Positions 1-38,195 of a stretch of 64,000 nt of DNA are shown piece by piece. The notes under the pieces are model-generated. The model was not told the origin of the DNA and did not search any database. It saw only the letters and a list, made by a program, of their open reading frames with translations. The stretch's first letter is position 1, and each line of letters opens with the position of its first letter. This stretch comes from a phage. The position numbers were made by a program, and so were the translations under genes. The stretch is from the sequence record PZ496581.1. One strand, written 5' to 3'.

Positions 1-1839
<1,839 letters not shown>

Positions 1840-1866: not shown

Positions 1867-3849
1867 ATGGCACTTCTCTCTCCGGGCGTTGAGCTCAAAG
1901 AAACTACCGTACAGAGTACTGTAGTTAATAACTCCACTGGTACTGCTGCCCTGGCTGGAAAATTCCAATGGGGACCTGCATTCCAGATTAAACAAATCAC
2001 TGATGAAGTTGCATTGGTTGATATGTTTGGTGCTCCTAATACGGATACAGCAGATTATTTCATGTCTGCTATGAACTTCCTTCAATATGGTAATGACCTT
2101 CGTGTTGTACGCGCAGTTGATCGTGATGCTGCTAAGAACTCATCTCCTGTAGCAGGCAATATTGAATTCACAATCTCTGCTGCTGGTAGTAACTATGCAG
2201 TTGGTGATAAAATTATCGTTAAGTATTTGACCGAAACTGTTGAAGCAGATGGTTATGTCACTTCAGTTGATGTCGATGGTAAAATTCGTAACATTTATAT
2301 CCCAACCGGTAAAATTATTGCTCGTGCAAAAGAAATTAATGAATATCCGGCATTGGGTTCTAACTGGACCGCCGAAGTTGCCAGTTCTTCTTCTGGTCTC
2401 TCTGGCGTTATTACAATTGGTTCTATCGTAACCGATTCGGGTATTCTGTTAACTGAAGTTGAAACTTCTGAAGAAGCTATTACTTCTCTAACTTTCCAAG
2501 AATCTATTAAAAAATATGGTGTCCCAGGCGTAGTTGCTCTTTATCCTGGTGAACTTGGCGACCAGCTCGAAATTGAAATCGTATCTAAAGCAGACTATGA
2601 CAAAGGTGCTTCAGCCCAGTTAAAAATTTATCCTGATGGTGGTACTCGTGCATCTACTGCTAAAGCAATCTTTGGGTATGGCCCACAAACTGATGACCAA
2701 TATGCAATTATCGTTCGTCGTAACGATGCTGTAGTTCAGAGCGTAGTTCTTTCTACTAAACGTGGTGAACGCGATATTTATGGTAGTAATATCTTTATTG
2801 ATGATTTCTTTGCTAAAGGCGCAAGCAATTATATTTTCGCTACTGCACAAGGTTGGCCAAAAGGTTTCTCTGGCGTAATCAAACTGGGCGGCGGCTTATC
2901 ATCTAATGAAACGGTTGACGCTGGTGATTTAATGGAAGCTTGGGATTTGTTTGCTGACCGCGAATCTGTTAATGCGCAGTTGTTTATTGCCGGTTCTTGT
3001 GCAGGTGAATCTTTAGAAGTTGCTTCTACAGTTCAGAAACATGTTGTAGCAATTGGTGATTCTCGCCAAGATTGTTTGGTTCTTTGCTCACCACCACGTG
3101 CAACTATAGTCGGTATTCCTGTTAATCGTGCAGTTGATAATCTGGTTGATTGGCGTACTGCGTCAGGAACTTACACTGATAATAACTTTAATGTAAGTTC
3201 TACTTATGCTGCTATTGACGGTAACTATAAATATCAATATGACAAATATAATGATGTGAATCGTTGGGTTCCATTAGCCGCTGATATCGCTGGTCTTTGT
3301 GCTCGCACAGACAATATTTCTCAGCCTTGGATGTCTCCAGCCGGTTATAACCGTGGACAAATTCTTAACGTTATTAAGCTTGCAATTGAAACTCGCCAAG
3401 CGCAGCGTGATCGTTTGTACCAGGAAGCTATTAACCCTGTTACTGGTACAGGTGGTGATGGGTATGTTCTGTACGGTGATAAAACTGCCACTTCTGTTCC
3501 TTCACCATTTGACCGTATTAACGTTCGTCGTTTGTTCAATATGGTTAAAACGAACATTGGTTCAGCATCTAAATATCGCCTGTTTGAATTGAACAACGCA
3601 TTTACCCGTTCTTCTTTCCGTACAGAGACTTCTCAATATCTACAGGGTATTAAAGCTCTTGGTGGTGTATATAACTTTAAAGTTGTTTGTGATACTACCA
3701 ATAACACCCCAGCAGTTATCGACCGTAATGAATTTGTAGCTACTTTCTACTTACAACCTGCGAGATCGATAAATTATATTACGTTGAACTTTGTAGCAAC
3801 AGCAACGGGTGCCGATTTCGACGAACTAATTGGTGCTGTAGGTGCCTAA
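1867..3849 (+). CDS. 18: Contractile tail sheath protein gp18
   Basis: 660 aa ORF, size and N-terminus (MALLSPGVELKET) match T4 gp18; position after gene 17. Confidence 0.95.
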   Translation: MALLSPGVELKETTVQSTVVNNSTGTAALAGKFQWGPAFQIKQITDEVALVDMFGAPNTDTADYFMSAMNFLQYGNDLRVVRAVDRDAAKNSSPVAGNIEFTISAAGSNYAVGDKIIVKYLTETVEADGYVTSVDVDGKIRNIYIPTGKIIARAKEINEYPALGSNWTAEVASSSSGLSGVITIGSIVTDSGILLTEVETSEEAITSLTFQESIKKYGVPGVVALYPGELGDQLEIEIVSKADYDKGASAQLKIYPDGGTRASTAKAIFGYGPQTDDQYAIIVRRNDAVVQSVVLSTKRGERDIYGSNIFIDDFFAKGASNYIFATAQGWPKGFSGVIKLGGGLSSNETVDAGDLMEAWDLFADRESVNAQLFIAGSCAGESLEVASTVQKHVVAIGDSRQDCLVLCSPPRATIVGIPVNRAVDNLVDWRTASGTYTDNNFNVSSTYAAIDGNYKYQYDKYNDVNRWVPLAADIAGLCARTDNISQPWMSPAGYNRGQILNVIKLAIETRQAQRDRLYQEAINPVTGTGGDGYVLYGDKTATSVPSPFDRINVRRLFNMVKTNIGSASKYRLFELNNAFTRSSFRTETSQYLQGIKALGGVYNFKVVCDTTNNTPAVIDRNEFVATFYLQPARSINYITLNFVATATGADFDELIGAVGA

Positions 3850-3859
3850 TAAGACGCCT

Positions 3860-3881
3860 GATGGGCTATTTCGGTAGCCCA
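3860..3881 (+). other. Intercistronic stem-loop between genes 18 and 19
   Basis: atgggcta-tttcgg-tagcccat inverted repeat (8 bp stem) immediately before the late promoter of gene 19. Confidence 0.5.
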
Positions 3882-3889
3882 TATAAATA
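3882..3889 (+). promoter_or_regulatory. Late promoter TATAAATA upstream of gene 19
   Basis: Exact TATAAATA in the 18-19 intergenic region. Confidence 0.7.
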
Positions 3890-3961
3890 TACTATATCGT
3901 TTAAAAATTAATTCTATGGGCATCCGGTTAATCCTAAGCCCATATTACTACAGAGGCTAAT

Positions 3962-4453
3962 ATGTTTGTAGATGACGTAACTCGTGCCTTCGAATCAGGT
4001 GATTTCGCTCGCCCTAACCTGTTCGAAGTAGAAATCTCTTATCTTGGGCAAAACTTTAGCTTCCAGTGTCGTGCTACGGCTCTTCCTGCTGCGATTGTTG
4101 AAAAGGTTCCTGTTTCTTATATGAACCGTAAAATTAACGTGGCCGGTGATCGTACATTCGATGATTGGACTATTACAGTAATGAACGATGATGCTCATAG
4201 CATTCGTCAGAAATTTGTTGATTGGCAAGGTATTGCAGCAGGACAAGGTAATGAAATTACCGGTGGTAAACCTGCTGAATATAAAAAGTCTGCTATCGTT
4301 CGTCAATTTGCTCGTGATGCTAAAACGGTCACTAAAGAAGTTGAAATTGTCGGCTTGTGGCCTACTAACGTTGGTGAAGTATCTCTTGATTGGGATTCGA
4401 ATAACGAGATTGAAACGTTCGAAGTAACTCTTGCTCTTGATTGGTGGGAATAA
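3962..4453 (+). CDS. 19: Tail tube protein gp19
   Basis: 163 aa ORF, size and position match T4 gp19. Confidence 0.92.
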   Translation: MFVDDVTRAFESGDFARPNLFEVEISYLGQNFSFQCRATALPAAIVEKVPVSYMNRKINVAGDRTFDDWTITVMNDDAHSIRQKFVDWQGIAAGQGNEITGGKPAEYKKSAIVRQFARDAKTVTKEVEIVGLWPTNVGEVSLDWDSNNEIETFEVTLALDWWE

Positions 4454-4537: not shown

Positions 4538-6109
4538 ATGAAATTTAATATCTTAAGTTTGTTTGCTCCATGGGCAAAAATGGACGAACGTGATTACAAA
4601 GACCAAGAAAAAGAAAATTTAGAATCTATCACCGCACCAAAATTAGACGACGGCGCTAAAGAATACGAAGTATCTGAAAATGAAGCACAGCAAACATATA
4701 ATGCTATGTTTCAGAGAATGTTCGGTAGTCAAGAACCAGGGCTCAAATCAACCCGTGAATTAATCGATACGTATCGAAATTTGATGACGAACTATGAAGT
4801 GGATAATGCAGTCTCTGAAATAGTTTCCGATGCTATCGTGTATGAAGATGATACAGAAGTCGTTTCTATAAATTTAGACAACACAAAATTTAGTCCAAAT
4901 ATCAAATCAATGATGTTGGATGAATTTAACGAAGTGTTGAATCATTTATCTTTCCAACGTAAAGGTTCAGATCATTTTAGACGTTGGTATGTGGATTCTC
5001 GAATTTTCTTCCATAAAATTATTGACCCTAAACGCCCTAAAGAAGGTATTAAAGAGCTTCGTCGTTTAGACCCACGTCAAGTTCAATATGTCCGTGAAGT
5101 TATTACAACCACTGAAGCCGGTGTTAAAATAGTCAAGGGTTATAAAGAATATTTCATTTATGACACATCACACGAATCTTATGCTTGTGATGGTCGCATA
5201 TATGAAGCGGGCACAAAAATAAAAATCCCTAAAGCCGCGATTGTTTACGCCCATTCTGGTTTAGTTGATTGTTGTGGTAAAAATATCATCGGTTATTTGC
5301 ATCGGGCTATTAAGCCAGCGAACCAATTAAAACTTCTTGAAGATGCTGTCGTAATTTATCGTATTACTCGTGCTCCCGATCGTCGTGTATGGTACGTTGA
5401 TACAGGTAATATGCCTTCAAGAAAAGCAGCAGAACATATGCAACATGTTATGAATACGATGAAAAACCGTATTGCATATGATGCTACTACAGGCAAGATT
5501 AAAAACCAACAGCATATTATGTCGATGACCGAAGATTATTGGTTACAACGACGTGATGGTAAAGCAGTAACAGAAGTTGATACATTACCAGGTGCAGATA
5601 ATACCGGAAATATGGAAGATGTACGTTGGTTCCGTAATGCGCTTTATATGGCTTTACGTATTCCTATTACCCGTATTCCAAGTGACCAAGGTGGTATACA
5701 GTTTGATGCTGGTACTTCTATTACACGAGATGAATTATCATTTGGTAAATTTATTCGTGAGCTGCAACATAAATTTGAAGAGATATTCCTAGACCCGCTT
5801 AAAACTAATTTAATTCTTAAAGGAATTATTACAGAAGATGAGTGGAATGATGAAATAAATAATATTAAGACAAAATTTCATCGGGATAGTTATTTCTCGG
5901 AATTAAAGGATGCTGAGATTCTGGAGCGTCGCATTAATATGCTTCAGATGGCCGAACCATTTATTGGTAAATATATTTCTCACAGAACAGCTATGAAAGA
6001 TATTCTTCAGATGTCTGACGAGGAAATTGAACAAGAGGCTAAGCAAATTGAAGAAGAGTCGAAAGAGGCTCGTTTCCAAGACCCCGACCAAGAACAAGAG
6101 GATTTTTAA
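4538..6109 (+). CDS. 20: Portal vertex protein gp20
   Basis: 523 aa ORF; T4 gp20 is 524 aa; conserved synteny. Confidence 0.95.
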
Positions 6110-6345
6110 TGGACGATTTAATTCAAGCTATTAAATCAAACGACCTCGTTGCTACTCGAAAGTTTTTTGAAAGTGCAATGGCAGAAAAAACGGTTCGTTT
6201 GATTGAAGCACGCAAAGCAGAAATCGCTTCTCAATTTTTGATTGAAGGCGAAGAACCTGAAGAAGAAAAGAAAGCTAAAGCTTCGGAAGACGACGCTGAT
6301 GAAGGCGATGACGACGAAGACGAAGATGATGAGGACGATGAATAA
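6109..6345 (+). CDS. 67: Prohead core protein gp67 (acidic C-terminal tail)
   Basis: 78 aa ORF ending in a poly-D/E tail, start overlaps gene 20 stop; matches T4 gene 67 position and size. Confidence 0.85.
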
Positions 6346-32838: not shown

Positions 32839-33025
32839 GTTTCAACCCTTTAATAGGAGATAACTCTTTACCCATACGTATGTCAGAAGTCCCATCAACC
32901 CATTGAACAGCATACGCTTCATTGATAATTCCAGCGGCAGTTTTAAATTCGTTGAGAACTTTAAAAATCATCCCAGGAATTCCAACACCTTTTAATTGGA
33001 CTGTTTGTGCTATTAAAAATTTCAT
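32828..33025 (-). CDS. Hypothetical protein
   Basis: 65 aa ORF in the 30.x array; possible sigma70-like -10 TATAAT upstream (33040-33060). Confidence 0.5.
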   Translation of the reverse strand: MKFLIAQTVQLKGVGIPGMIFKVLNEFKTAAGIINEAYAVQWVDGTSDIRMGKELSPIKGLKHVE

Positions 33026-33079
33026 ATTTTTCCACTTACTAAAGAAATCATTATACTCTAATCCGTCCTTGGATGTACA

Positions 33080-33694
33080 CTACTTAATGAAATTAATTTC
33101 TACCGGATGAACAACAGGTTGAGCAGTGATATATTGAGTAATTGCTTTCATGACTAGAGCTTCAGAACCAGGATTTTTCTCAACGAATTCACGTGCTAGG
33201 TTATGAGCTTCGAGTTCACTCAATAAACCGGAACGCTGGCATCCACGGTCTTGAGTACCCTGTTCAGATAAAAGGACTACTACATATTTTTCATCGTCGT
33301 AGGGCTTAGCCAGTTGAGCAAATGTTCCTTTACTTCCAAAAGGAGAGTTATGTCGCCACATCACGCCGTGAGGAGTTTCAACCTTCGTATATTCGTGCGG
33401 TCCATTTTTCTTAGTTTCTTGATGTGGAACTTCATAGACCTTAGGGTTAGGACATTCAATAAAATGCTCATCTAAATCGGTCGAGAATATTAAAGTAAAA
33501 CAATTACTGAATTTACCAACACCGGCCTGATAAATTTTACCTTCAGAAGTTCTAATTTCACAAACTGAGCCGGCATCAGTAACTTCTAAAACTTCAAAAG
33601 GCTCAATAAGGTCATATGAGAACATGTTTTTAAGGCGTGGAGTAATATCCCCATTTTTAAAATTCATTTTATAAAAAGTATTAACTTTAAACAT
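33080..33694 (-). CDS. Hypothetical protein (204 aa)
   Basis: ATG 33694 with SD GAGGAA; a hairpin (tgggagc-cgaa-gctccca, 33703-33720) lies just upstream. Confidence 0.6.
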   Translation of the reverse strand: MFKVNTFYKMNFKNGDITPRLKNMFSYDLIEPFEVLEVTDAGSVCEIRTSEGKIYQAGVGKFSNCFTLIFSTDLDEHFIECPNPKVYEVPHQETKKNGPHEYTKVETPHGVMWRHNSPFGSKGTFAQLAKPYDDEKYVVVLLSEQGTQDRGCQRSGLLSELEAHNLAREFVEKNPGSEALVMKAITQYITAQPVVHPVEINFIK

Positions 33695-33729
33695 AATTTC
33701 CTCAGTGGGAGCCGAAGCTCCCAATTAAT

Positions 33730-34095
33730 TTAGATATCAAATTCGTTAAGAACTACATCAAAGATTGCTTCGAGATGTTCAGGTTTAGCTCGGTTACTCA
33801 GGATATGACGAATCCAAGTTTTAACCAGAAGTTTACGATTAACACCATTCCAGCAAGGATGAGTACCTAAATCACGCTGACGGAAATCATCATCTAATGC
33901 AATTTTAAAATTTGAACCTTCCATCGTGATTGAAACCGTGATACCATTTTCAAATCGCATATAAACGTAATTAGGAGTCATGCACTGTTCGATTTCACAA
34001 ACTGTACCGTTTTCGTGTTTCCATAAGCAAATAACTTCAGAAGAACCAGCAATACCGTTAGAAACATATTTACGTTCGAAGTTGGTGTAGTTCAT
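33730..34095 (-). CDS. Hypothetical protein (121 aa)
   Basis: ORF with its own early-promoter cassette and SD. Confidence 0.6.
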   Translation of the reverse strand: MNYTNFERKYVSNGIAGSSEVICLWKHENGTVCEIEQCMTPNYVYMRFENGITVSITMEGSNFKIALDDDFRQRDLGTHPCWNGVNRKLLVKTWIRHILSNRAKPEHLEAIFDVVLNEFDI

Positions 34096-34848: not shown

Positions 34849-35143
34849 TATAAATTCTCTTTAAATGAAAATGCAGGACTTATTGACATTGCCTGCGCAA
34901 GCCCTCAAGGGGAACATAGGTTTTGGATATTTAACGACAGGATAACCATAAACCCGTCATCATACCAACCACGACTTAGACAGATAACCTTTTTCTGACG
35001 CGTGATAGTACAAAATACATTCAAGAGGTACACCGTAAAACTGCCGGGGCCTTAAAACTATAATGATTCGCAAATCATTAATCAGACAGTTCGACGGCTC
35101 CTCGATTTTCTAGCCGCACTTAAGGTAGCGAATCACCTAAAAC

Positions 35144-35392
35144 TTATTTAAGGGTAATAACAAAATGACGTACTGCTTTACGAGCTGCAGAAGCCAAAGG
35201 CTTAGCATATTTCAGTTCATCTTTTGCTTCCAGTTCAGAGGCCAAAGCTGCCTGTACCGGGTTCAGATGTTTGAAATAATGCAGGATTTCCAGTGCTTCG
35301 GCTTCAACATCAATCGACGCGCCGTAGTTTTCGTGACCGTTATTCCATGCGTTTCGTTGCAGTTCAAGAGCGTGTTGTAATTGTTTAATCAT
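35144..35392 (-). CDS. rIII: rIII lysis inhibition accessory protein
   Basis: 82 aa ORF; T4 RIII is 82 aa; position immediately downstream of gene 31. Confidence 0.85.
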   Translation of the reverse strand: MIKQLQHALELQRNAWNNGHENYGASIDVEAEALEILHYFKHLNPVQAALASELEAKDELKYAKPLASAARKAVRHFVITLK

Positions 35393-36215: not shown

Positions 36216-36786
36216 AAAAGTTTCGAATTTGTTCCCAATTCAGAGAACGAAGATTATTACGAGAGTACTGAATTACTTCAATACCGGCTTGTTTTAGAAT
36301 GTCTGCCCAATTTTCAGGAGATCGGTCATATAATTCTGCATATACAACCTTTTTAATACCTGACTGTGTAATAGCTTTAGTGCAATCAGGGCACGGAGAA
36401 AGCGTAGTATATAACGTAGCACCTTCAATAGAATTACCTTTACGAGCTGCAAACAAAATTGCATTCAATTCAGCATGGATTTCGTTATTAGCAGACCATG
36501 CACTATGAGCGGCCCGATGTTCTTTAGCCAAAACAAAATTATCCACCCGTCCAAATGCTGTAGTGCCTTCTTTATGCCCAGCAACGATGTCCGGGCTTGG
36601 TTTATTCTTCAACCAACCGTTTTCGGATGCATGTTCGCAACAGTTTGTACCACCGGCCGGGCTACCGTTATACCCAGTAGAAATAATGCGCCCATCTTTT
36701 TCAATGACGGCACCAACTTTCCATGAACAACATTTTGATTCTTGAGAAATCAGATATGCAATCTGAAGGTATGTGCTAGCTTTCAT
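36205..36786 (-). CDS. cd: dCMP deaminase
   Basis: 193 aa ORF with zinc-binding deaminase motifs HAELNAI and SPCPDC; T4 Cd is 193 aa. Confidence 0.95.
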   Translation of the reverse strand: MKASTYLQIAYLISQESKCCSWKVGAVIEKDGRIISTGYNGSPAGGTNCCEHASENGWLKNKPSPDIVAGHKEGTTAFGRVDNFVLAKEHRAAHSAWSANNEIHAELNAILFAARKGNSIEGATLYTTLSPCPDCTKAITQSGIKKVVYAELYDRSPENWADILKQAGIEVIQYSRNNLRSLNWEQIRNFCGE

Positions 36787-37778
36787 TATTGAACCTTATT
36801 AATATGAGTTAACAGCTCTTTAGTTTGTTCCCAACTGATGCACGCATCGGTAACGGAAACGCCATAGGACATATTATCAGAAATTTTTTGATTTCCTTCA
36901 TGTAGGAATGATTCTATCATAATTCCTTTGACCAAATCATTAGCTGCTAAATTTTTACCAATACCAATTTGATTGCTATAATGCCCATCAGCGTTTGCAT
37001 GGCTACAGTCAACCATTACATAATGATTCAGACCTACTGCCCTTGCTTTGTTAGAAGCTTCTTGAATATCAGAAGAATGATAGTTCGGGCCGTTGGTCCC
37101 GCCACGCAATACGATATGCGTATTCTGATTACCTTCAGCTTCAACAATGCCTACAGTACCATCGACGTCCATACCCATATACCGATGAGGCCAGGCGGCA
37201 CTATACATCGCGTCTGTAGCTACTTTAATAGAACCATTGGTTGCGTTCTTGAAGCCTACGCACATCGGTAGACCTGAAGCAATTTCACGATGTGTCTGAC
37301 TTTCAGTCGTACGGGCGCCAATAGCAACCCATGAGAAAATACCAGAAAGATACTTAATCGTGAATGGGTCTAATACTTCAGTTGCTAATGGAAGTCCCAT
37401 ACGTAGAAGTTTACGACACAATGTTCGTGCAACTATAAGACCGTGGTTCATATCAAAACTTCCGTCAAGATATGGATCATTTACAAGACCTTTCCAACCT
37501 ACGGTAGTTCGAGGCTTTTCAAAATAAACGCGCATCACTAACAGAACATTAGGAAGACGAGTTTGAAGTTCAGCCAAACGTTTGCCGTATTCAACAGCAG
37601 CAATAGGGTCATGAATTGAACAAGGACCTACAACAATAAGTTTGCGTGGGTCTTCACCGTTCATAATCGAATTAACTTGTTCGCGATGAGAAGCCACTTG
37701 TGATGCGTAAGCTTCCGACAAAGGAATAATCTCAGCCAGTTCTTTTGGAGAAATAAGTTTTCCGACGACAGGTAACAT
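36786..37778 (-). CDS. 3-deoxy-7-phosphoheptulonate (DAHP) synthase, class I (AroG/AroF-like)
   Basis: 330 aa ORF alignable along its length to E. coli AroG: ..VVGPCSIHDP.., ..MRVYFEKPRTTVGWKGL.NDP.., ..AIGARTTESQTHRE.ASGL.., ..ILRGG.., ..IESFLHEGNQ..; SD AAGGA; stop overlaps the cd start (ATGA). Confidence 0.9.
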   Translation of the reverse strand: MLPVVGKLISPKELAEIIPLSEAYASQVASHREQVNSIMNGEDPRKLIVVGPCSIHDPIAAVEYGKRLAELQTRLPNVLLVMRVYFEKPRTTVGWKGLVNDPYLDGSFDMNHGLIVARTLCRKLLRMGLPLATEVLDPFTIKYLSGIFSWVAIGARTTESQTHREIASGLPMCVGFKNATNGSIKVATDAMYSAAWPHRYMGMDVDGTVGIVEAEGNQNTHIVLRGGTNGPNYHSSDIQEASNKARAVGLNHYVMVDCSHANADGHYSNQIGIGKNLAANDLVKGIMIESFLHEGNQKISDNMSYGVSVTDACISWEQTKELLTHINKVQ

Positions 37779-37898
37779 AACAATCCTTAGGAGATATAAA
37801 CAGATTCTGATTCAACAATACCTTTAACCGGATTAGACAGGCTAAGTTGGTAGTGCTCAGATTTATGACCATTCTCGATAGTAATTAGATAGCTCTCA

Positions 37899-38135
37899 TT
37901 ATAGTGTTCCATATACTCGAGTTGCTTCAACTAAACCGTCACTGCCTAATTTAAGGCTAGTAATCTGGTCACCATCTTTAGGATTAACGATTATGAGAAA
38001 AGAACGTGGAGATTCTTGAATAACTCGTAATGTTGCATCCTGGAAACGTTCAGACACTTTATTGATGAGTGCTTGAGCAAATTCTTTTACTTTAATCTGA
38101 AATTCGTGTACTGTAATTGGGTTTTCACTTAGCAT
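37899..38135 (-). CDS. Hypothetical protein (cd.x-like)
   Basis: 78 aa ORF with early-promoter cassette and SD GAGGAAAT. Confidence 0.55.
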   Translation of the reverse strand: MLSENPITVHEFQIKVKEFAQALINKVSERFQDATLRVIQESPRSFLIIVNPKDGDQITSLKLGSDGLVEATRVYGTL

Positions 38136-38162: not shown

Positions 38163-38195
38163 TCATAGTATCACAACTCTACCATGTTGTAAACC
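38163..38195 (-). promoter_or_regulatory. Early promoter cassette (GTTTAC-N18-TACTAT)
   Basis: Minus-strand GTTTAC (38189-38194) and TACTAT (38165-38170). Confidence 0.65.

Follow-up and report, generated by a model that had tools for sequence, protein, structure and literature searches.

Why would a T4-like phage carry a gene for DAHP synthase, the enzyme that converts PEP and erythrose 4-phosphate (E4P) to DAHP and Pi and that opens the aromatic amino acid pathway? The question is raised by an ORF of 330 codons with an ATG start, lying next to cd (Table 1) in the stretch of DNA, from an RB69-like phage, analysed here (record PZ496581.1, 64,000 nucleotides; hereafter, the window). The gene lies on the minus strand, a detail that the initial annotation of this DNA left out.

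Table 1. Features of the DAHP synthase locus, in window coordinates
Feature	Position	Strand	Basis
cd, dCMP deaminase, 193 aa	36205..36786	-	ORF; annotation of relatives
Right repeat copy, ATAATGAAAGCTA, across the stop codon of the DAHP synthase gene (TAA, 36788..36786) and the start codon of cd (ATG, 36786..36784)	36777..36789	-	
DAHP synthase gene	36786..37778	-	ORF; Pfam, NCBIfam and PHROG matches; alignment to E. coli AroG, AroF and AroH; model
Cassette leader, 120 bp, degraded 3' half of a foreign cd.2	37779..37898	-	PHROG 1504; BLASTP; DNA alignment
Imperfect direct repeat of 13 nt, left copy, ATAATGAGAGCTA, at the stop codon of the resident cd.2	37890..37902	-	Repeat comparison
Resident cd.2 homologue, 78 aa, directly upstream of the cassette	37899..38135	-	PHROG 1504 (128 bits); annotation of Shf125875 and RB69
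Early-promoter-like site (TTTACA, 17-nt spacer, TACTAT, upstream TG)	38165..38193	-	Consensus scan

By sequence and by fold, the gene belongs to the class I-alpha family of DAHP synthases. Its translation holds all five hallmark motifs (GPCSIHDP, KPRTTVGWKGL, GARTTESQTHRE, LRGG and ESFLHEGNQ), and scores well above the cutoffs of PF00793 (252.3 bits versus 25.5, E=5e-75), of the aroFGH equivalog TIGR00034 (428.7 versus 173.2) and of NF009395 (455.9 versus 343), while the isoenzyme-specific NCBIfam models for AroH (386.5 versus 463) and AroG (363.9 versus 568) stay below theirs. The AF2 model (pLDDT 93.1, pTM 0.92) is a (beta/alpha)8 barrel with the I-alpha decorations, the N-terminal helices and the beta6a/6b hairpin, shorter at the extreme N-terminus, and Foldseek aligns it to the N. 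meningitidis and E. coli type I-alpha structures with TM scores of 0.94-0.96 and an rmsd of 1.4-1.8 A. Profiles, alignment and predicted fold thus bear out the class I assignment of the initial annotation, which had rested on the motifs. Its description of the protein as AroG-like does not hold, the identity to E. coli AroF (51% over 320 residues) being higher than to AroG (47%) or AroH (44%), and 'full-length' has to be qualified, the protein being about 20 aa shorter than the bacterial enzymes. When compared with AroF (PDB 6AGM/6AGL), the phage enzyme shares the fold, the metal ligands, the PEP and E4P sites and a Gly at the specificity position, but lacks some 8-9 N-terminal residues and two C-terminal loops of 5 and 3-4 residues, has I, K and P in place of P151, Q152 and S181 (P150, Q151 and S180 of AroG), and is encoded at a phage-like GC content.

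The roles of the active-site residues in AroG are established by crystal structures. All 13 of the AroG catalytic and substrate-binding positions compared (C61, H268, E302, D326, R92, K97, R99, T100, G163, A164, R165, K186 and R234) are identical in the phage protein and in all 27 clusters of the phage clade. The metal ligands are C53, H260, E289 and D311 in phage numbering (AroG Cys61, His268, Glu302 and Asp326), invariant in the 27 clusters; the KPRT motif supplies K88, R90 and T91, also identical across the clade; and the PEP site consists of R83, G154-A155-R156, K177 and R225. As initially annotated, the expected metal ligands are all retained in the alignment to AroG, AroF and AroH, together with every substrate ligand. 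The phage protein is therefore predicted to be catalytically competent.

The allosteric pocket, by comparison, has been rebuilt. An unbiased scan of 328 alignment columns for positions with one residue in at least 90% of the phage sequences and another in at least 90% of the bacterial ones returned only six fixed differences, which in AroG numbering are P150I, Q151K, D155G, S180P, F209Y and T223A (I141, K142, G146, P171, Y200 and A214 of the phage protein). At five of the six, the phage residue occurs in none of the 98 bacterial sequences. All six map within or beside the allosteric pocket, T223 being assigned to it provisionally. Moreover, only 8-12 residues precede the equivalent of AroG P19 in the phage proteins, versus 16-25 in the tabulated bacterial ones, which means that the segment carrying AroG D6/D7 is absent. 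In the AroG-Phe structure, this segment is the lid that closes the inhibitor pocket. An intact pocket, comprising P150, Q151, S180 and F209 and the N-terminal lid of the partner subunit, is found nowhere in the phage clade; the alignment that the initial annotation had proposed as a check for loss of the feedback-inhibitor site thus finds its residues replaced and its lid missing.

Four of the six fixed positions coincide with the ten AroG feedback-resistance positions given in PMC9529685 (hypergeometric p=6.5e-6), and D155 is described there as a salt-bridge partner that stabilises the inhibitor site. Single substitutions in AroG at P150, S180 and F209 abolish inhibition, and yeast ARO4 Q166K is a feedback-resistant allele identical in kind to the phage Q151K, the two positions being equated by coordinate arithmetic. 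This is the one exact precedent; the natural residues in P150I, S180P and F209Y differ from those of the laboratory alleles P150L, S180F and F209A/S. The resistant alleles, among them further Q151 variants of AroG, are single laboratory mutations, whereas the phage changes at the same positions occur in nature, are fixed, and come five or six at a time together with an N-terminal truncation, and the insensitivity of the phage enzyme is a prediction. The rebuilt pocket is expected to abolish inhibition by Phe, Tyr and Trp, and with it feedback control.

It is quite unlikely that the phage enzyme is instead an ordinary regulated isoenzyme, a 'Tyr-sensitive AroF' that adds DAHP synthase capacity and is still inhibited by tyrosine. 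AroF is indeed the best bacterial match, the phage protein has the AroF-like Gly at the position that discriminates Tyr- from Phe-type enzymes (AroG S211), and several records annotate the gene as 'Tyr-sensitive'. However, Q151 and S180, which contact the main chain of the inhibitor, have given way to K and P in all of the phage sequences, P150 and the salt-bridge residue D155 have become I and G, the lid is gone, and changes such as ARO4 Q166K and those at P150, S180 and F209 of AroG are the ones that abolish inhibition. The 'Tyr-sensitive' label is a homology transfer, and its presence on many records amounts, judging from the sequence, to a systematic annotation error.

A second possibility is that the enzyme is active but that its pocket has been retargeted, and now responds to another small molecule, for instance a metabolite that reflects the state of the infected cell. 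The new residues are fixed across a clade of 57-77% identity, and 11 of the 16 pocket-lining positions are invariant (14 of the 16 are at least 90% conserved), as opposed to 34% of all columns, which exceeds what would be expected of a disused site. On the other hand, the same residues belong to the dimer interface and the beta6a/6b region, so that their conservation could have purely structural causes, the phage proteins lack the N-terminal segment by which the AroG pocket is completed, and the sequence names no candidate ligand. Retargeting is unlikely on balance, even if the conservation of the rebuilt pocket, taken by itself, is as compatible with a ligand site that was kept and retargeted as with a dead one.

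For the expression of the gene, the context is suggestive of early transcription. The phage-style Shine-Dalgarno sequence reported in the initial annotation is AAGGA (37788..37784), 5 nucleotides upstream of the ATG codon (37778..37776), and the overlap that it described between the stop codon and the start of cd also exists, although as TAATG with one shared base (36786) and not as ATGA. The early-promoter-like site lies between the cd.3 and cd.2 homologues, its sequence is conserved in RB69, and in a T4 record an early promoter is annotated at the corresponding place between cd.2 and cd.3. No terminator-like site was found on the DAHP synthase strand. The promoter call is a consensus match of a kind that alone is not evidence of function; the site is the likely source of a transcript that runs from cd.2 through the DAHP synthase gene into cd.

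The surroundings had been described as a nucleotide-metabolism operon, which is too strong for a gene that has cd, pseT and small ORFs with no assigned function as its neighbours. This position, among early host-takeover and nucleotide-related genes and not aromatic-pathway genes, might point to a role outside the shikimate pathway, such as the formation of mixed oligomers that perturb the host DAHP synthases, a drain on PEP or E4P that diverts central carbon flow, or the supply of a sugar acid for another purpose, and no further shikimate gene was noticed within the region examined. Such a role is very unlikely, given that every catalytic and substrate-binding residue, including the KPRT motif, is invariant in the clade at a dN/dS of about 0.15, that the protein scores above the aroFGH equivalog cutoff, and that the sequence gives no hint of another substrate or partner.

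The reading that we favour, with a probability of roughly 60%, is that the gene encodes an early-expressed, constitutively deregulated DAHP synthase, in which the active site is intact and the feedback site has been rebuilt. In this mechanism, the gene would be transcribed early, jointly with cd and probably from the promoter upstream of cd.2. The phage enzyme would then sustain carbon flow into the shikimate pathway whatever the aromatic pools or the state of host gene expression, which T4-like phages shut off and of which an enzyme made by the phage would be independent. The added flux could lead to aromatic amino acids or to other chorismate-derived products, from which the phage presumably benefits.

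Is the gene a settled component of phage genomes? As the initial annotation believed, similar genes are annotated in T4 relatives: DAHP synthase homologues are found in 213 phage records, and identical or near-identical genes in about 140 Mosigvirus genomes. The window protein is 100% identical in JN02, GADS24, SCS57 and NHEP10/36 and 99.7% identical in Shf125875, and matches PHROG 5045, classed as an auxiliary metabolic gene, at 605 bits. The members of this family, named 'phospho-2-dehydro-3-deoxyheptonate aldolase' (Shf125875 gp195, PhAPEC2_205, PEi20 ORF-233, KLB31), are the same gene, of which the window copy is typical. With so many named copies on deposit, the gene has little novelty, despite the lack of an orthologue in T4, which has only the small ORFs cd.1-cd.5 here, as the initial annotation stated; RB69 has nothing at this position.

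The copies in T4-like phages form one clade, monophyletic in 37 of 40 bootstraps, and as far as sampled the lineage is confined to these phages. The arrangement pseT, cd.2, DAHP synthase, (cd.1), cd is common to at least five genera (Mosigvirus, Kanagawavirus, Marfavirus, Winklervirus and Bragavirus) and is also seen in one uncultured T4-like contig. The gene is under purifying selection, with dN/dS values of 0.11-0.26 between genera (for instance, dN 0.10 and dS 0.71 for Entb_45 versus PEi20); values inside Mosigvirus are uninformative, as the copies differ at only 3-10 positions in 990 nt. Residence in bona fide phage genomes, a conserved context and selection place the gene among phage auxiliary metabolic genes. 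A specific bacterial donor was not found in the NJ tree, where the phage clade is sister to a wide assortment of I-alpha enzymes.

A bacterial origin of the DNA itself, through host contamination or very recent capture from the host, was rejected and has a negligible probability. One cluster representative carries the NCBI label '[Escherichia coli]', but it comes from a phage-sized contig of 170,875 bp. The window gene has a GC content of 41% and a GC3 of 30%, resembling the adjacent phage genes, where E. coli aroF and aroG have 52% and 50-57%, and its product is only 44-51% identical to AroF, AroG and AroH; the same slot is occupied in five phage genera by members of a phage-only clade. The composition, the location between cd.2 and cd and the early-promoter-like site upstream all agree with the initial annotation in making this a phage gene.

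A Cd.1 homologue, which matches T4 Cd.1 by BLASTP at E=2e-10, is encoded downstream of the DAHP synthase gene and ahead of cd in Serratia phage X20 and Proteus phage PM2. This puts the slot between cd.2 and cd.1, and the idea that the DAHP synthase gene replaced the cd.1 of T4 was rejected. A link to the arabinosyl-hmC modification of RB69-type DNA was also considered, and was dropped because RB69 itself has no DAHP synthase gene.

In Mosigvirus, the gene is carried by a 1113-bp cassette (36786..37898) that is absent from RB69. When these 1113 bp are deleted from the window and the remainder is aligned pairwise, the RB69 cd.2|cd junction is restored, with flanks that are 94% identical over 588 bp. 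The ends of the cassette are marked by the two repeat copies, which agree at 12 of 13 bases and lie 1113 bp apart. The leader is a remnant of a cd.2 of the Kanagawavirus/Marfavirus type, read by a 47-aa ORF (37787..37930, minus strand) that matches the Cd.2 family PHROG 1504 (E=1.5e-5, profile positions 41-76) and, by BLASTP, the Cd.2 proteins of Entb_45 (E=1e-7) and PWKp18 (E=5e-6), with no BLASTP match to the resident Cd.2. The TAA stop codon of this ORF (37789..37787) is embedded in the Shine-Dalgarno sequence of the DAHP synthase gene. This anatomy suggests that the Mosigvirus gene came on the cassette from another T4-like phage, inserted at the cd.2|cd junction, and may then have spread through Mosigvirus genomes nearly unchanged. 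RB69 and about six other Mosigvirus phages have no cassette and phage G53 has a frameshifted copy, and the gene is therefore dispensable in at least some conditions.

Phage auxiliary metabolic genes such as talC and psbA of cyanophages and those for NAD salvage in KVP40 are host-derived, kept by lytic phages and expressed during infection, and their roles are experimentally supported. The DAHP synthase gene resembles them in encoding a metabolic enzyme whose presence varies among close relatives, and differs in that its role is deduced from sequence. The one paper found that treats a phage DAHP synthase, listing it as an auxiliary metabolic gene, offers a hypothesis only (PMC11845039), in keeping with the statement of the initial annotation that it was aware of no demonstrated function in infection. 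Within the searchable literature, we found no functional study of a phage DAHP synthase (assay, inhibition, transcript or mutant phenotype), no transcriptome or metabolome data for infection, and no shikimate-pathway gene with a demonstrated role in coliphage infection; the T4-like phage genome papers examined for the gene make no mention of it.

More broadly, we see about even odds that T4-like phages maintain, as a mobile cassette, a naturally feedback-insensitive or re-targeted I-alpha DAHP synthase that overrides the shikimate control point of the host during infection, and that would have arisen through the same few changes for which metabolic engineers select. Mosigvirus genomes with and without the cassette are near-isogenic, and the fitness value of an auxiliary gene is therefore measurable in this genus. 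To our knowledge, the characterised type I-alpha DAHP synthases are all feedback-regulated, and for this reason metabolic engineers could make good use of a natural family that lacks such regulation. If the favoured reading is correct, a virus would have stripped the allosteric feedback from a captured host enzyme while keeping its catalysis, and this would represent a specific mechanism by which metabolism is taken over at the point that chiefly controls aromatic biosynthesis.

The open reading frame lying against cd, the dCMP deaminase gene, comprises 330 codons, starts with ATG and encodes a DAHP synthase (DAHPS). The five motifs listed in the initial annotation are all found in its translation, and the class I family assignment is borne out by matches to Pfam DAHP_synth_1 (252 bits, E=5e-75), the NCBIfam aroFGH equivalog TIGR00034 (429 bits against a cutoff of 173) and the NCBIfam subfamily NF009395 (456 bits against 343). 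Among solved structures the top match is E. coli AroF (6AGM, E=3e-105), and direct alignment gives identities of 51% to AroF, 47% to AroG and 44% to AroH. An AlphaFold2 model with 50 homologues as input (mean pLDDT 93.1, pTM 0.92) fits type I-alpha DAH7PS structures, with TM scores of 0.94-0.96 and an rmsd of ~1.6 A. The sole low-confidence segment of the model, residues 91-94 (pLDDT <50), corresponds to TTVG in the KPRTTVGW substrate loop, which is mobile across solved DAH7PS structures.

The phage-style Shine-Dalgarno sequence claimed previously is present upstream of the start codon. The overlap of the stop with the cd start also exists, but in the form TAATG rather than ATGA, as the TAA and ATG codons have one base in common; such small details excepted, the initial observation and its interpretation were correct. 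A T4-type early-promoter-like site lies between the cd.3 and cd.2 homologues, is kept in RB69, and has its counterpart in an early promoter that a T4 record places between cd.2 and cd.3. Because this site lies upstream and no terminator-like site was seen on the minus strand from 39900 to 35800, cd.2, the DAHPS gene and cd are likely to be co-transcribed early.

Coordinates of features in the window and, where named, in comparison phage DNA
Feature	Coordinates	Strand	Sequence or remark
DAHPS gene	37778..36786	-	330 codons
Shine-Dalgarno of DAHPS gene	37788..37784		AAGGA
DAHPS stop codon	36788..36786		TAA
cd start codon	36786..36784		ATG
Low-confidence model segment	~37497..37508		residues 91-94
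Cassette with DAHPS gene	36786..37898		1113 bp
Left repeat copy	37902..37890	-	ATAATGAGAGCTA
Right repeat copy	36789..36777	-	ATAATGAAAGCTA
T4-type early-promoter-like site	38193..38165	-	TTTACA, 17-nt spacer, TACTAT, with TG
Patch diverging from Shf125875	32979..33778		53-70% identity
Patch diverging from Shf125875	34979..35378		78-86% identity
DAHPS gene of G53 (L013)	601..1648		55-bp tandem duplication
cd of RB69 (L012)	5743..6252		510 nt
DAHP synthase gene of HJ05 (L010)	2899..4062		387 aa as annotated

When residues are mapped to AroG numbering, with roles that we take from the established structural literature on AroG, 13 of 13 catalytic and substrate-binding positions are unchanged both in the window protein and across all clusters of the phage clade. 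These comprise the metal ligands C61, H268, E302 and D326, whose retention had been claimed from the sequence, and the PEP/E4P residues R92, K97, R99, T100, G163, A164, R165, K186 and R234. The alignment to AroG, AroF and AroH thus reveals no loss of catalytic residues, and a non-canonical or non-enzymatic role for the protein is improbable.

The allosteric pocket, the aromatic amino acid feedback-inhibitor site of the AroF, AroG and AroH enzymes, is a different matter. The phage proteins start ~8 residues later than AroG, AroF and AroH do, and the segment that is absent (D6/D7 in AroG) is presumably the part of the partner subunit that completes the inhibitor site in the AroG-Phe complex. A column scan blind to function compared 27 phage clusters with 98 bacterial sequences and took a position as fixed differently when each group had its own residue at a frequency of ≥90%. 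Just 6 of 328 columns emerged: P150 of bacteria is I in phages (I141 of the window protein), Q151 is K (K142), D155 is G (G146), S180 is P (P171), F209 is Y (Y200) and T223 is A (A214). Four of the six fall on the ten resistance positions described for AroG (hypergeometric p=6.5e-6), where P150L confers complete Phe resistance and S180F, F209A/S, L175D, L179A and V221A are also resistant (PMC9529685). Furthermore, the inhibitor main chain is contacted by Q151 and S180 in AroG and by Q152 and S181 in AroF, and the D155 salt bridge stabilises the inhibitor site (PMC9529685). By coordinate arithmetic on the 1HFB match rather than direct alignment, the Q-to-K replacement is equivalent to ARO4 Q166K, an allele that makes the yeast enzyme feedback-resistant and is used for strain engineering.

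These features suggest that catalysis was kept and regulation rebuilt in the phage clade, and the reading favoured here, with a probability of roughly 0.6, is an active, early-expressed DAHP synthase with a disabled feedback site. Conservation of the new pocket residues is strong: 11 of the 16 positions that line the pocket are invariant in the phage clade as compared with 34% of all columns, a pattern compatible equally with an allosteric site retargeted to a different ligand and with a dead site under structural constraint; retargeting is nonetheless rather unlikely. Somewhat less likely still is an ordinary isoenzyme inhibited by Tyr, as the 'Tyr-sensitive' label on many records is not supported by the sequence, the window protein scoring under the cutoff of both the AroG-specific and the AroH-specific NCBIfam models. 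Labels for the gene also include 'hypothetical protein', 'putative aldolase' and 'phosphate synthase I alpha' in GenBank, the neighbouring dCMP deaminase is also named tadA/tRNA-specific adenosine deaminase or 'riboflavin biosynthesis protein RibD', and Cd.2 of HX01 is an 'olfactory receptor-like protein'.

In Mosigvirus (RB69-like) phages, to which the window region is 96-99% identical, the gene resides on a cassette flanked by the two copies of an imperfect 13-nt direct repeat, which agree at 12 of 13 bases, and removal of its 1113 bp leaves a sequence collinear with RB69 over the cd.2/cd junction (94% identity, 588 bp). The 120 bp from the resident cd.2 to the DAHPS start encode the C-terminal half of a Cd.2 of the Kanagawavirus/Marfavirus type (PHROG 1504, E=1.5e-5; BLASTP to Cd.2 of Entb_45, E=1e-7, and of PWKp18, E=5e-6), and their product has no BLASTP match to the resident Cd.2. 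The stop codon of this remnant sits inside the DAHPS Shine-Dalgarno sequence, the same arrangement as in Entb_45/PWKp18-type phages. The simplest reading is that the 3' half of cd.2 and the DAHPS gene were imported together from another T4-like lineage into a cd.2/cd junction of the RB69 type, joined on the left perhaps via AGCTA microhomology and on the right at the cd start. Cassette identity of the window to Shf125875, HX01, JK45 and phi25-307 is 99.0-99.7%, whereas it is 95.6-96.1% in the adjoining 180 bp of cd.2 and 85-95% over the first 200-300 bp of cd (88.6-94.6% over 297 bp), the break falling at or close to the cassette boundaries, which suggests that the cassette was spread recently by recombination. 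It is present in ~140 records, and the RB69-type empty junction in ~11 closely related ones (RB69, ECO111 5-P, JK36, JK42, moha, mar005P1). In Escherichia phage vB_EcoM_G53 (MK327943.1), the duplication within the DAHPS gene repeats the codons for NYHSSDIQEASNKA.AVG and shifts the frame; the result is a natural pseudogene, or else the assembly is in error, and the record lists a misc_feature, not a CDS. Elsewhere, two local patches of mosaicism or replacement (near rIII and further downstream) stand out against a background of 95-100% identity to Shf125875. The cd gene of RB69 is annotated as 169 aa, shorter than the 193 aa (582 nt) of its window and T4 counterparts; as their N-termini agree, they differ internally or at the C-terminus.

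A search of 5.8 billion proteins gave a graded series of matches, from T4-like phages of Edwardsiella, Enterobacter, Erwinia, Klebsiella, Serratia, Proteus, Providencia and Shigella (57-98% identity, 319-343 aa) to bacterial enzymes (at most 55%, 341-388 aa). A neighbour-joining tree groups the 27 phage-type clusters as one clade in 37 of 40 bootstrap replicates and gives that clade no specific bacterial sister; the closest sequence outside the clade adjoins metH in a bacterium. Two divergent members are metagenome-only, on T4-like contigs, one with the order frd-td-rnlA-alc-spanin-pseT-x-DAHPS-cd. The slot between pseT/cd.2 and cd is common to five genera (Mosigvirus, Kanagawavirus, Marfavirus, Winklervirus and Bragavirus). 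Replacement of cd.1 is ruled out by X20 and PM2, where a homologue of the T4 Cd.1 lies between the DAHPS gene and cd. Between genera dN/dS is 0.11-0.26, with 0.145 for the least saturated pair, Entb_45 and PEi20 (dN 0.10, dS 0.71). Composition (GC 41.3%, GC3 29.6%) is similar to that of cd and pseT, as compared with GC 52% and GC3 50-57% for E. coli aroF/aroG, and contamination is exceedingly improbable. A distant class I enzyme (38% identity) with a longer N-terminus is encoded among hypothetical proteins in the unrelated 79-kb genome of Aeromonas phage HJ05 and looks like an independent acquisition, and human faecal 'Bacteriophage sp.' contigs carry further DAHP synthases at 35% identity.

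As the initial annotation had supposed, such genes are annotated in T4 relatives: 213 phage records contain a homologue that spans 80% or more of the protein, ~140 of them with an identity of 95% or higher, and the names given include AroG, aroF, DAHP synthetase and phospho-2-dehydro-3-deoxyheptonate aldolase. Deposited copies in JN02, GADS24, SCS57 and NHEP10/36 are 100% identical to the window protein, which shares 99.7% identity with Shf125875 gp195 and matches PHROG 5045 (605 bits; 'moron, auxiliary metabolic gene and host takeover'). A 98%-identical cluster representative, P0001, is labelled '3-deoxy-7-phosphoheptulonate synthase [Escherichia coli]' by NCBI, but its 170,875-bp contig matches a Mosigvirus genome in size and thus probably represents a phage genome that was assigned to a bacterial assembly. 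In the literature searched, only PMC11845039 discusses a phage DAHP synthase, that of Klebsiella Kanagawavirus KLB31, which it counts among auxiliary metabolic genes while offering no more than a hypothesis, and no functional data were found. Since phage annotations already record this gene as an auxiliary metabolic gene, its novelty is low; what the present analysis adds, from sequence comparison, is that the clade-fixed substitutions all appear to cluster in the allosteric site and that the gene probably lies on a cassette with a remnant of a foreign cd.2.

Some relatives can dispense with the gene: T4 has cd.1 to cd.5 at this locus and no DAHP synthase, in agreement with the initial annotation, which gave T4 small cd.x ORFs only, and RB69 has cd.2 directly against cd. 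Under the favoured reading, carbon would go on entering the shikimate pathway whatever the aromatic amino acid pools and the state of host transcription, and this may provide aromatic amino acids from which phage proteins are made, or folate, quinones or siderophores derived from chorismate.
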